DNA of 37,028 nucleotides. Origin: a virus (lineage: Duplodnaviria; Heunggongvirae; Uroviricota; Caudoviricetes). A program made the position numbers and the translations under genes. Positions within the stretch are counted from its first letter, which is position 1. Every line of letters begins with the position of its first letter. The stretch lies in IMG/VR virus record IMGVR_UViG_2690316076_000004, one strand, 5' to 3'. The notes beneath the pieces were generated by a model that was given only the letters and a program-made list of their open reading frames with translations, was not told the origin of the DNA and did no database searches. This document shows positions 11,045-12,543 of the stretch, in pieces.

Positions 11045-11815
11045 TTATTTCTTGAAGTCTTCGTACATTCTACGAAGGTTGTATTTTGGATGGCCTAAGC
11101 TAACCATGATTTGGCTCAATTTAACTGCGCCAGGTTTGCCGTTTTCAATCCACACACGACGGATTTCATCGTAATGCTGCCAACAGCCTTGACCTTTAGC
11201 AATGCGTATAGAATGTGTATATTTCTTGGTAGAGCTTTCTGGTCGCTTACGCCCTAGATGTGCTTTTCTAATCTTTTCGCGTGTTTCTTCTGATACAGGT
11301 TTACCATAACGGGGGTTATTTTCTCCACGAGAAGCAGCGGATAATTTAGCTAATATTTCTGGGTTGGTTATTTTCTTCCCTTTCATTGCACTAGGTTTAC
11401 CATAGCGATGGTTCTTTTCACCCATTCGAGATGCCGACATTTTAGCTCTAGATTCCGGTGTATGTTTTCTTCCGTAAAAAGGATGATTTTCACCACCATC
11501 AAAACCACCGACACCACCAGGAGCAATATTAAGACATACACCACGCCCCCATTTTTCGCGTGCTGCCTCCACTAACAGAATTTCACATTCAAACGCATCC
11601 TCGGCAGTATCAAACAATTTTGAGCGAACAACTTCAAATTCATATATCGGGGTTTCTGATTCTTTATTTTTACGCTTCATCATTTTAATAACTTTACCCG
11701 ACCCCACATATCCATCATCTAGATTTGTAGTTGTTCTTTTTCCGACGTAATGATAGATTTTACCAGAGCGATTAGATTTAATAGTGGTGTGATAAACGTA
11801 ATGGAATTTTTGCAT
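11045..11815 (-). CDS. GIY-YIG homing endonuclease with NUMOD3-like repeats
   Basis: KIYHYVGKR...YVGSGK GIY-YIG motif; repeated NxRYGKP / HPFYGRKHT DNA-binding motifs; inserted between conserved tail genes. Confidence 0.85.
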   Translation of the reverse strand: MQKFHYVYHTTIKSNRSGKIYHYVGKRTTTNLDDGYVGSGKVIKMMKRKNKESETPIYEFEVVRSKLFDTAEDAFECEILLVEAAREKWGRGVCLNIAPGGVGGFDGGENHPFYGRKHTPESRAKMSASRMGEKNHRYGKPSAMKGKKITNPEILAKLSAASRGENNPRYGKPVSEETREKIRKAHLGRKRPESSTKKYTHSIRIAKGQGCWQHYDEIRRVWIENGKPGAVKLSQIMVSLGHPKYNLRRMYEDFKK

Positions 11816-11820
11816 ATAGG

Positions 11821-11867
11821 AAAGCCCTCAAAAATAAAGAATCTCTCCTATATTTATTGAGGGCTTT
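11821..11867 (-). promoter_or_regulatory. stem-loop sequestering the RBS of the GIY-YIG gene
   Basis: perfect 11-bp inverted repeat AAAGCCCTCAA (11821-11831) / TTGAGGGCTTT (11857-11867); the GAGGG RBS lies inside the arm 9 nt from the ATG. Confidence 0.55.
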
Positions 11868-11889
11868 AGTGTGCCATTTAGTTTCAGTA

Positions 11890-12543
11890 TTACTTTTTAG
11901 ACGAGTGCCAGCGGCTTTCGCTATTCCACTTCCCGGCACGAGAGAAGAATAGATCGTTCTCGTTTCCAACATAGGATCGGTGGATACCATCGGAGGCATG
12001 ACTACGAGCGTTTTTATCTAGAACTTCCCAGATACTATTAAGCTGAAATTCTGATTCGTTTTTACACTCATCATCTTCATGTTCGATGTTAATCCCGATG
12101 GAATCGACTACCCCACGGAAAACAGGGTAAGTTGTTTCAACCTTGCCCGTGTTAGGGTTCAGGAACACCATTTCGATTTTCACATCTGATTTATCGAATT
12201 GCTTGTTTCGAATCAGGGTAATGTATTCCTCGCGAACGTTAGAAACGGTTACGTTAATCCCGTTGTTGTTGATCTCCTTCTCTTCGGTATTTGATGAGAT
12301 TTGAAGAAAATCACCCGTTGCGAGATATGTAAATCCGTTATAGTCCAAATCGAAGTACCCATCTGTAAGCCGTAGAACGTCCCCTGACGCGGTAATCACT
12401 TCGATAATGTGAAACATCGATCCAGTGGAAAAAAGCTGCGGTAGCGTCAATCTAGACACGTTCTGACCTGTCTGGTCGTTGTATACCTCGATGAAGTCCA
12501 GATTAGTGCATAGTTTGCTGAATGATTCCTGAATAGTTGCCAT
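11890..12543 (-). CDS. minor tail protein, lambda L-like (tentative)
   Basis: size and position after M-like gene; ATG at 12543 gives TAATG coupling with upstream stop (track start 12597 overlaps upstream gene by 55 nt). Confidence 0.45.
   Translation of the reverse strand: MATIQESFSKLCTNLDFIEVYNDQTGQNVSRLTLPQLFSTGSMFHIIEVITASGDVLRLTDGYFDLDYNGFTYLATGDFLQISSNTEEKEINNNGINVTVSNVREEYITLIRNKQFDKSDVKIEMVFLNPNTGKVETTYPVFRGVVDSIGINIEHEDDECKNESEFQLNSIWEVLDKNARSHASDGIHRSYVGNENDLFFSRAGKWNSESRWHSSKK

Follow-up and report, generated by a model that had tools for sequence, protein, structure and literature searches.

A probable Seg-type homing endonuclease cassette, with a hairpin over its ribosome-binding site, between two tail genes of an enterobacterial prophage

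How does a gene for a homing endonuclease come to lie in the middle of a phage tail operon, and how could it be kept from doing harm there? The question is raised by IMG/VR virus record IMGVR_UViG_2690316076_000004 (Caudoviricetes), a stretch of 37,028 nucleotides (nt) that was analysed as a whole and is called the window below. An earlier note, made from the sequence alone, had pointed to a free-standing GIY-YIG/NUMOD3 endonuclease gene within its tail-tip operon, with the ribosome-binding site (RBS) locked in a hairpin. We propose that the gene and its leader constitute a cassette of 845 nt, which is probably a free-standing homing endonuclease element of the T4 Seg type, with the junction of the hub and DUF6950 genes as its target and with translation limited by the hairpin. 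The elements involved are the following.

11045..11889, minus strand: mobile insert of 845 nt, comprising the 5' untranslated region (UTR) with the hairpin and the endonuclease gene with its stop codon
11816..11889, minus strand: 5' UTR of the endonuclease gene, within the insert
11045..11815, minus strand: endonuclease coding sequence, 256 amino acids (aa), between the hub and DUF6950 genes; stop codon at 11045-11047
11890..12543, minus strand: tail hub gene of the PF09931/DUF2163 type (baseplate hub, 217 aa), the host gene upstream of the insert
10579..11013, minus strand: DUF6950 gene, downstream of the insert; probable start at 10998
11890..11898, minus strand: left copy, AAAAAGTAA, of an imperfect 9-nt direct repeat, formed by the last two hub codons and the stop codon
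11045..11053, minus strand: right copy of the repeat, AAGAAATAA, formed by the last two endonuclease codons and the stop codon

A scan of IMG/VR with the hub protein gathered 34 related loci. At about 26 IMG/VR loci the insert is missing: the hub stop codon runs straight on into TCCCTTCTCCC, and the DUF6950 gene lies 31 nt after the hub stop. The carriers are the window and loci L008, L015, L021, L022, L031, L036-L040 and L043-L048, and the excess of spacing over the empty sites is exactly 845 nt in the window and in five of about 31 IMG/VR loci. A screen of 5426 complete Escherichia coli genomes found this tail module in 56, six of them with the insert and 50 with a clean empty site. The presence of the insert is incongruent with the similarity of the flanks, since locus L024 encodes DUF6950 and J proteins 100% identical to those of the window and yet has no insert. 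Conversely, the same junction is occupied in E. coli and Salmonella prophages by alleles whose identity to the window's falls from 99 through 89, 78, 76, 74 and 62 to 53%, and a 35% relative resides in a T4-like context, adjoining a topoisomerase gene. Thus, the gene is far from universal at this locus: most relatives have a clean empty site, in agreement with the earlier note's view of it as an intruder, and comparison with the relatives that lack it defines both the 845-nt extent of the insert and the precise form of the empty site. The gene is placed between the hub stop codon and the DUF6950 RBS and leaves both host genes intact. The right copy of the 9-nt repeat is identical to the end of the hub gene in empty sites; because of the repeat, the insertion point can be resolved only to within 9 nt.

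Several loci deviate from this pattern. The insert-free locus L029 (positions 6690-6725) has the hub end TCT AAA AAG TAA followed by TAATCCC, is 3 nt longer than the other empty sites, and corresponds to the two junctions of the insert, left and right, fused at a short ATA repeat; judged by its sequence, it may be a scar of cassette loss. In one E. coli genome (H33, NZ_CP024134) an IS1 element is inserted in this region, and two variants of the endonuclease are truncated, P0020 to 172 aa and P0022 to 140 aa; we regard these as signs of decay in some carriers. Neither megablast nor blastn with positions 10000-13200 found a match in the phage collection, and tblastn with the hub protein returned a single distant record without the insert, Escherichia phage DCP80 (PQ671644.1, locus L001); among GenBank phage records, only this one encodes a relative of the hub protein (44% identity). 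DCP80 is labelled as Straboviridae/Gaprivervirus and is 141 kb long, with the siphovirus-like gene order tape measure, distal tail protein, hub, DUF6950 and J and with no endonuclease at the hub/DUF6950 site; the classification or the assembly of this record may be worth checking. A scan of genome contigs with the endonuclease gave no confirmed locus, the peptide patterns used probably being too specific.

What kind of protein does the insert encode? A scan against Pfam, even at E<=10, reports NUMOD3 alone, with no direct match to PF01541 (GIY-YIG) or PF19835 (SegE_GIY-YIG), so the GIY-YIG assignment needed testing. We distinguish three parts.

11507..11815, minus strand: Seg-type GIY-YIG catalytic domain, aa 1 to about 103, with Y8, Y23, G25, E78, N96 and the motif NLDDGYVGSG
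11246..11494, minus strand: three NUMOD3 DNA-binding repeats, aa about 108-190 (Pfam PF07460, E 1.1e-21, three stretches)
11048..11239, minus strand: C-terminal helical domain, aa 193-256

NCBIfam TIGR01453 matches the NUMOD3 region only, with a score under its cutoff, and the RefSeq name of the gene is 'NUMOD3 domain-containing DNA-binding protein'. PHROG 314, annotated as 'homing endonuclease', matches residues 1-208 with E 8e-32, and tblastn finds 'seg-like' endonucleases of about 30% identity in T-even-type phages. The N-terminal domain alone collected 770 relatives in an exhaustive phmmer search. When the window protein and 60 of these relatives were scanned against Pfam, 20 of the 61 sequences matched PF19835 and 20 matched PF01541; a comparison by hhalign of the profile of the N-terminal 105-residue family with the N-termini of the PF01541-positive proteins gave a probability of 98.2% and E 4.4e-14 over 92 columns. 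The N-terminal domain has the GIY-YIG alpha/beta fold, and Y8, Y23-V-G25, E78 and N96, invariant or nearly so in the family alignments, align with the reference residues Y6, Y17-x-G19, E71 and N88. Searches of Protein Data Bank sequences with phmmer and with the family profile gave noise only. An N-terminal extension of the protein was ruled out by an in-frame TGA in the 3' arm of the hairpin, and the C-terminal domain is probably a small helix-turn-helix-like DNA-binding module. By the criteria that we applied to its sequence, the protein is a Seg-type free-standing homing endonuclease, for which we infer nuclease activity.

The comparison of alleles indicates that the protein is in use. Between E. 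coli and Salmonella alleles the synonymous divergence (dS) of the catalytic domain is saturated at 1.6-1.7, and the ratio of nonsynonymous to synonymous divergence (dN/dS) is 0.03-0.16 in this domain and 0.12-0.28 in the C-terminal part; such low ratios imply purifying selection on a working protein. The two halves have different histories. Within E. coli, the UTR and the catalytic domain are 94-100% identical at the nucleotide level, and so are the flanks, while the half composed of the NUMOD3 repeats and the C-terminal domain (11045-11500, minus strand) is only 34-70% identical to that of loci L021, L043 and L048, with dS of 1.0-1.8. The breakpoint of this mosaic lies near codon 105. As the divergent half is embedded in near-identical flanks and attached to a near-identical catalytic domain, the DNA-binding modules have evidently been exchanged by recombination.

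The presumed target is the 3' end of the hub gene.

11890..11943, minus strand: hypervariable 3' end of the hub gene, the last 17 codons and the stop codon, identified by the diversity of insert-free loci

Nucleotide diversity was calculated for 22 insert-free loci in 30-nt bins along the genes for the distal tail protein, the hub and DUF6950. It peaks at 0.254 in the bin that corresponds to window positions 11904-11933 (hub codons -14 to -5) and stays at about 0.03 elsewhere in the three genes. The variants are mostly synonymous swaps of several nucleotides at once, such as TCC CGT to TCA AGG or AGC to TCA or TCG, and the encoded peptide remains nearly unchanged, SR(A/T)G(K/R)W(N/Q)SES(K/R)W(H/F)SSKK. 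GIY-YIG enzymes such as I-TevI and the Seg proteins typically cleave at some distance from the insertion site. We suggest, from the pattern of variation, that the hotspot reflects either escape from a sequence-specific nuclease that cuts just upstream of the insertion point or the scars of repair after such cuts, and that the hub 3' end would be the region recognized and cleaved by the endonuclease. There is precedent for raised diversity beside mobile endonuclease elements (PMC5378118). We also considered that insert-bearing loci have a recoding of their own in the last five hub codons; this idea was dropped when the wider table of loci revealed no strict tie.

If the enzyme is active, how is its synthesis held in check? 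The leader of the gene contains the following elements.

11857..11867, minus strand: 5' arm of the hairpin, AAAGCCCTCAA
11821..11831, minus strand: 3' arm of the hairpin, TTGAGGGCTTT, with the Shine-Dalgarno (SD) sequence GAGGG at 11825-11829
11844..11863, minus strand: 20-nt element CCCTCAATAAATATAGGAGA, invariant among alleles, which takes in the 5' half of the loop and part of the 5' arm

On the mRNA strand the order is the hub stop codon, 22 nt, AAAGCCCTCAA, 25 nt, TTGAGGGCTTT, CCTAT and the ATG. The perfect 11-bp stem of the earlier note is real, and pairing continues inward beyond it; its GAGGG does lie within the 3' arm, 9 nt 5' of the ATG. The 67-nt fold has a predicted energy of -21.7 kcal/mol (z -4.68), equalled by none of 200 shuffled sequences, and leaves the SD zone with a mean unpaired probability of 0.12; an RNA that starts in the loop, without the 5' arm, folds with -3.2 kcal/mol only. 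The hairpin lies within the insert and is absent from empty sites. All seven distinct UTR types retain it, at -21.7 to -22.7 kcal/mol. The fourth pair of the stem is G:C in the window, A:U in L036, L038 and L046, and C:G in L039, and the inner stem is preserved through three one-sided changes to G.U wobbles, which pair on the mRNA strand only. Thus, compensatory changes across the UTR types provide evolutionary support for the structure. In Salmonella alleles the stem has 14+7 bp and the loop 3 nt, and in all alleles 19-22 nt separate the hub stop from the stem. The element CCCTCAATAAATATAGGAGA is identical in all seven UTR types amid saturated neighbouring synonymous sites, which implies a constraint on its sequence beyond pairing. 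It resembles the leader of T4 segB and includes the SD-like AGGAGA and AATAAATA, which matches seven of the eight positions of the T4 late-promoter consensus and is at most a candidate promoter in this prophage.

That the inverted repeat arose by chance, or serves in the DNA as a palindrome bound by a protein, we regard as a very remote prospect. Perfect inverted repeats of at least 11 nt with short loops occur at three places in the window, all just 5' of start codons, and these three account for eight 11-mer repeat matches in the window against 0.45 expected. The z of -4.7, with 0/200 shuffles as stable, speaks against chance, and the compensatory changes preserve pairing rather than sequence, including strand-specific G.U pairs; the 25-nt spacing of the arms would be atypical of an operator. 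All that this explanation can claim is the restriction of covariation to one stem position. I-TevI is an autorepressor whose operator is similar to its homing site. An operator of that type in the UTR was rejected, as the UTR bears no likeness to the empty-site sequence (their local alignment scores 13, and shuffles average 14.1). An upstream open reading frame (ORF) that begins in the loop, with an ATG 6 nt after AGGAGA, was likewise dismissed as a conserved feature, for it is present in Salmonella alleles only and absent in E. coli alleles.

A more serious rival, although in our judgement still an unlikely one, holds that the hairpin acts on transcription or RNA stability, either as a weak terminator or attenuator that is read through by antiterminated late transcription or as a 5' stabilizer, and that the pairing of the SD is incidental. 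Indeed, a stem with G-C pairs is followed by a pyrimidine- and U-rich tail, UUUCCUAU in the window and UUUUCUUCU or UUUUCUUAU in Salmonella alleles; the case is stronger for the latter, where UUUUCUUCU follows the stem and the loop has 3 nt, and a similar hairpin with a UUUUCU tail stands after the tape-measure gene. However, our terminator scan makes no call at the endonuclease hairpin, the tail Us pair with 5' As in the predicted fold, and termination here would cut off essential tail genes downstream. Moreover, the clear terminators of this phage are different: classical intrinsic ones, with short GC stems, tetraloops and at least six Ts, lie within the late operon at 15940-15968, 22857-23050 and 6728-6832 (minus strand), after the presumed major tail, capsid and J-like genes, and their position inside the operon implies read-through or antitermination of late transcription. 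In the last codons of the endonuclease gene, at 11056-11080, we also note a hairpin of ten pairs (three of them G-C; core CTTCGTA / TACGAAG), which the scan calls terminator-like on the plus (antisense) strand only.

The endonuclease hairpin has counterparts among the native genes of the phage. Between the tape-measure stop (13154) and the start of the distal tail protein gene (13103) there is a perfect 15-bp hairpin (13106-13151, minus strand), which has the loop GATAAATAATCATAAA and, within the 3' arm, the SD GGGGG; its fold is predicted at -25.7 kcal/mol (z -5.4). Its stem has several compensatory differences between the prophages of E. coli and those of Salmonella, and the loop motif ATAAATA is kept. 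The tape-measure stop codon is 2 nt from this stem, so a terminating ribosome should melt it, and translational coupling would result. Two further hairpins over ribosome sites, at 5536-5573 and 4415-4460 (minus strand), have ATAAATA or TATAAATA at the 5' edge of the stem. The former precedes the gene at 5188-5535, which adjoins the M15 endolysin gene (4825-5178); the latter precedes an unannotated gene for 332 aa (3416-4414), weakly matched by PHROG 681 'endonuclease', and includes the ATG itself in its 3' arm. At 10980-11033 (minus strand) a perfect 10-bp stem, TAAGCCTAGT / ACTAGGCTTA (arms 10980-10989 and 11024-11033; -20.1 kcal/mol, z -4.0), encloses the SD and the start codon of DUF6950 in its loop; this stem also occurs in insert-free loci and must therefore belong to the host phage. 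In the 1175 nt of intergenic coding strand of the late region ATAAATA is found four times against 0.8 expected (P about 0.012), and all four copies are in hairpins that occlude the RBS, before the starts at 4414, 5535, 11815 and 13103; in the whole window there is no enrichment, with 16 matches against 11.6 expected. The motif may mark the place where transcripts start or are processed, or else a standby site.

These observations invite another explanation of the hairpin, as a module with a promoter or a processing site inside it, so that RNA from just after ATAAATA would lack the 5' arm and would alone yield the endonuclease. A scan of the coding strand over 10400-13300 revealed no sigma-70-like promoter near the gene. 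The cassette therefore looks promoter-less, as are several seg and mob genes of T4 (PMC2988022). An RNA shortened in this way would be unstructured, AATAAATA in the loop is invariant despite the saturation of neighbouring synonymous sites, ATAAATA is concentrated in late-region intergenic DNA with every copy in an RBS hairpin and is retained in the loop before the distal tail protein gene while the stem covaries, and the leader of T4 segB is built similarly (PMC2988022). On the other hand, the motif count is small, the intergenic DNA is AT-rich and no sigma-70-type promoter scores at the site. T4 late promoters require gp55/gp33, and no factor of the gp55/gp33 type was recognized in the window. 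Taking both sides together, we find this explanation rather doubtful. We give about the same small weight to a broader and more speculative scheme in which at least four ATAAATA-in-hairpin modules (starts 4414, 5535, 11815 and 13103) would time or meter translation in a T4-like manner, the 5' arm being lost when a transcript begins internally, or the RNA is cut, downstream of the motif. The cassette would have brought or copied one of these modules, and its DNA-binding half and the hub 3' end would record an ongoing arms race between the specificity of the endonuclease, altered in the swappable DNA-binding half, and the escape of the target through recoding.

We therefore return to the Seg-type cassette with hairpin-limited translation. 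The endonuclease would most likely recognize the insert-free hub/DUF6950 junction, chiefly the last 50 nt or so of the hub gene. In a cell that contains phages or prophages both with and without the insert, the enzyme would cleave the copy that lacks it, and repair from the insert-bearing copy would carry the cassette across together with short flanking tracts. As no promoter is detectable, the cassette is presumably transcribed within the late tail operon. On such transcripts its ribosome site would be locked in a stable hairpin that starts 22 nt past the hub stop, a distance at which ribosomes that finish the hub gene would probably leave it closed. Endonuclease synthesis would then be very low, and the insert would not affect how the tail genes downstream are expressed. 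Of the RBS lock proposed in the earlier note, the SD-pairing hairpin itself stands, carried by the insert and maintained by compensatory changes, and the block to translation on read-through transcripts is a deduction from it; silencing of the endonuclease by the hairpin is plausible, and the way in which repression is relieved we can only infer.

Some of our data weigh against this reading and should be set beside it. First, the columns of the I-TevI-type Arg27/His31 pair in helix 1 align to a gap, and the protein has the NLDDGYxGSG segment instead. The same replacement is seen in T4 SegB and SegD, and SegB is an active nuclease (PMC2330249). Second, insert status does not fully predict the synonymous differences at the hub end: L046 and L047 retain AAG AAA TAA, and L029 has AAA AAG without the insert. 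A diversity hotspot could also be produced by short recombination tracts of any origin. Third, in a comparison of 28 genes the SD is unpaired with a probability of 0.00 for the start at 13103 and 0.01 for that at 5535, against 0.12 for the endonuclease; since native genes that must be expressed are equally or more occluded, occlusion alone does not prove silencing. Finally, the covariation comes from one stem position and from few independent lineages.

Some of the same points could be turned into an argument that the protein has been domesticated as, or is decaying into, a DNA-binding protein and has ceased to be a mobile nuclease, and that its patchiness arose from ancestral presence and repeated deletion. 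Pfam detects no GIY-YIG domain directly, the canonical Arg/His are missing at the aligned position, RefSeq names the product as a DNA-binding protein, truncated variants exist (P0020 and P0022), and L029 resembles a deletion scar. We nevertheless consider this quite improbable, because the catalytic residues are conserved under a dN/dS of 0.03-0.16, the motif set equals that of the active T4 SegB, the hub 3' end displays a target-like synonymous hotspot, and the presence of the insert is incongruent with the similarity of its flanks.

How does the proposed cassette compare with systems already described? RBS-sequestering hairpins have been reported for T4 segB, I-TevI and mobE of phage Aeh1 (PMC2988022). 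The closest parallel is T4 segB. The N-terminal domain is 38% identical to SegB over 103 aa (BLASTP, E 2e-12) and shares NLDDGYxGSG with it, SegD being similar, and both genes are free-standing between host genes. The segB leader forms a hairpin that also pairs the ribosome site (-25.5 kcal/mol, z -5.3), with ATAAATA in its 5' arm and AGGAGA and the AUG in its 3' arm, and ATAAATA and TAGGAGA are common to both leaders. However, segB resides in a tRNA gene cluster of a T-even phage and not in the tail operon of a temperate siphovirus-type prophage, the three NUMOD3 repeats and the helical domain at the C-terminus here do not align with SegB, GAGGG, at the foot of the 3' arm, is the working SD here rather than AGGAGA near the loop, and a T4-type late promoter function is here only a candidate. 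I-TevI is more remote: it is encoded by the td intron of T4, unlike the free-standing gene here, and it has the Arg27/His31 pair without a counterpart at the aligned position, and an operator relationship between UTR and empty site, as in I-TevI, was not found. MobE of Aeromonas phage Aeh1 is likewise free-standing and embedded in an operon, with an RBS-sequestering hairpin (PMC2988022), but it belongs to the HNH family, lies in an nrd context and has a mapped phage-specific late promoter. Hairpins that occlude the RBS are also found in the T4 late genes soc, e, 25, 26 and 39 (PMC2988022), as they are at the native starts 13103, 5535 and 4414 of the window. As native genes also have such hairpins, the endonuclease shares a design that is common in its host genome. 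For the T4 late genes relief by late-promoter transcripts is established, whereas for the start at 13103 translational coupling is plausible.

The wider locus is that of a temperate siphovirus-type prophage, with a serine integrase, an HK97-like head module, a terminase, a portal protein and a T4 gp37-like fibre; identical proteins are named from Shigella flexneri, E. coli and Salmonella. All genes of the tail region around the endonuclease ORF are on the minus strand, and those that complete the order are the following.

13154-15586, minus strand: tape-measure gene, the first of the listed tail genes in mRNA order
12543-13103, minus strand: distal tail protein gene, 3' of the tape-measure gene
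6833-10579, minus strand: J-like tip protein gene, 1248 aa, after DUF6950

The neighbours of the endonuclease gene had been called L-like and K-like; these labels hold by position only, the domains being a PF09931 hub upstream and DUF6950 downstream. The mechanical ORF of the hub gene, 11890-12597 (minus strand), begins with TTG at 12597. Its true start is likely the ATG at 12543, which shares TAATG with the stop codon of the distal tail protein gene; calls in relatives are 216-217 aa long.

We regard the endonuclease cassette as a clear but fairly ordinary further example of the known Seg-type genes, and what differs from them is the setting, the tail operon of a temperate enterobacterial siphophage, and the different SD that is locked. 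The Seg-type identity explains an 845-nt presence/absence polymorphism in a common prophage family of E. coli, Shigella and Salmonella. Among the by-products of the analysis, the synonymous hotspot at the hub end, the mosaicism of the DNA-binding half and the RBS hairpins that share ATAAATA are worth following up. An active enzyme would add a site-specific nuclease to those known, with a likely target that the empty sites reveal. As a small natural system, the locus lends itself to studying how an essential tail operon is protected from a homing endonuclease in its midst, how a target escapes through synonymous recoding and how endonucleases exchange their DNA-binding modules, with many pairs of insert-bearing and insert-free prophages already sequenced.

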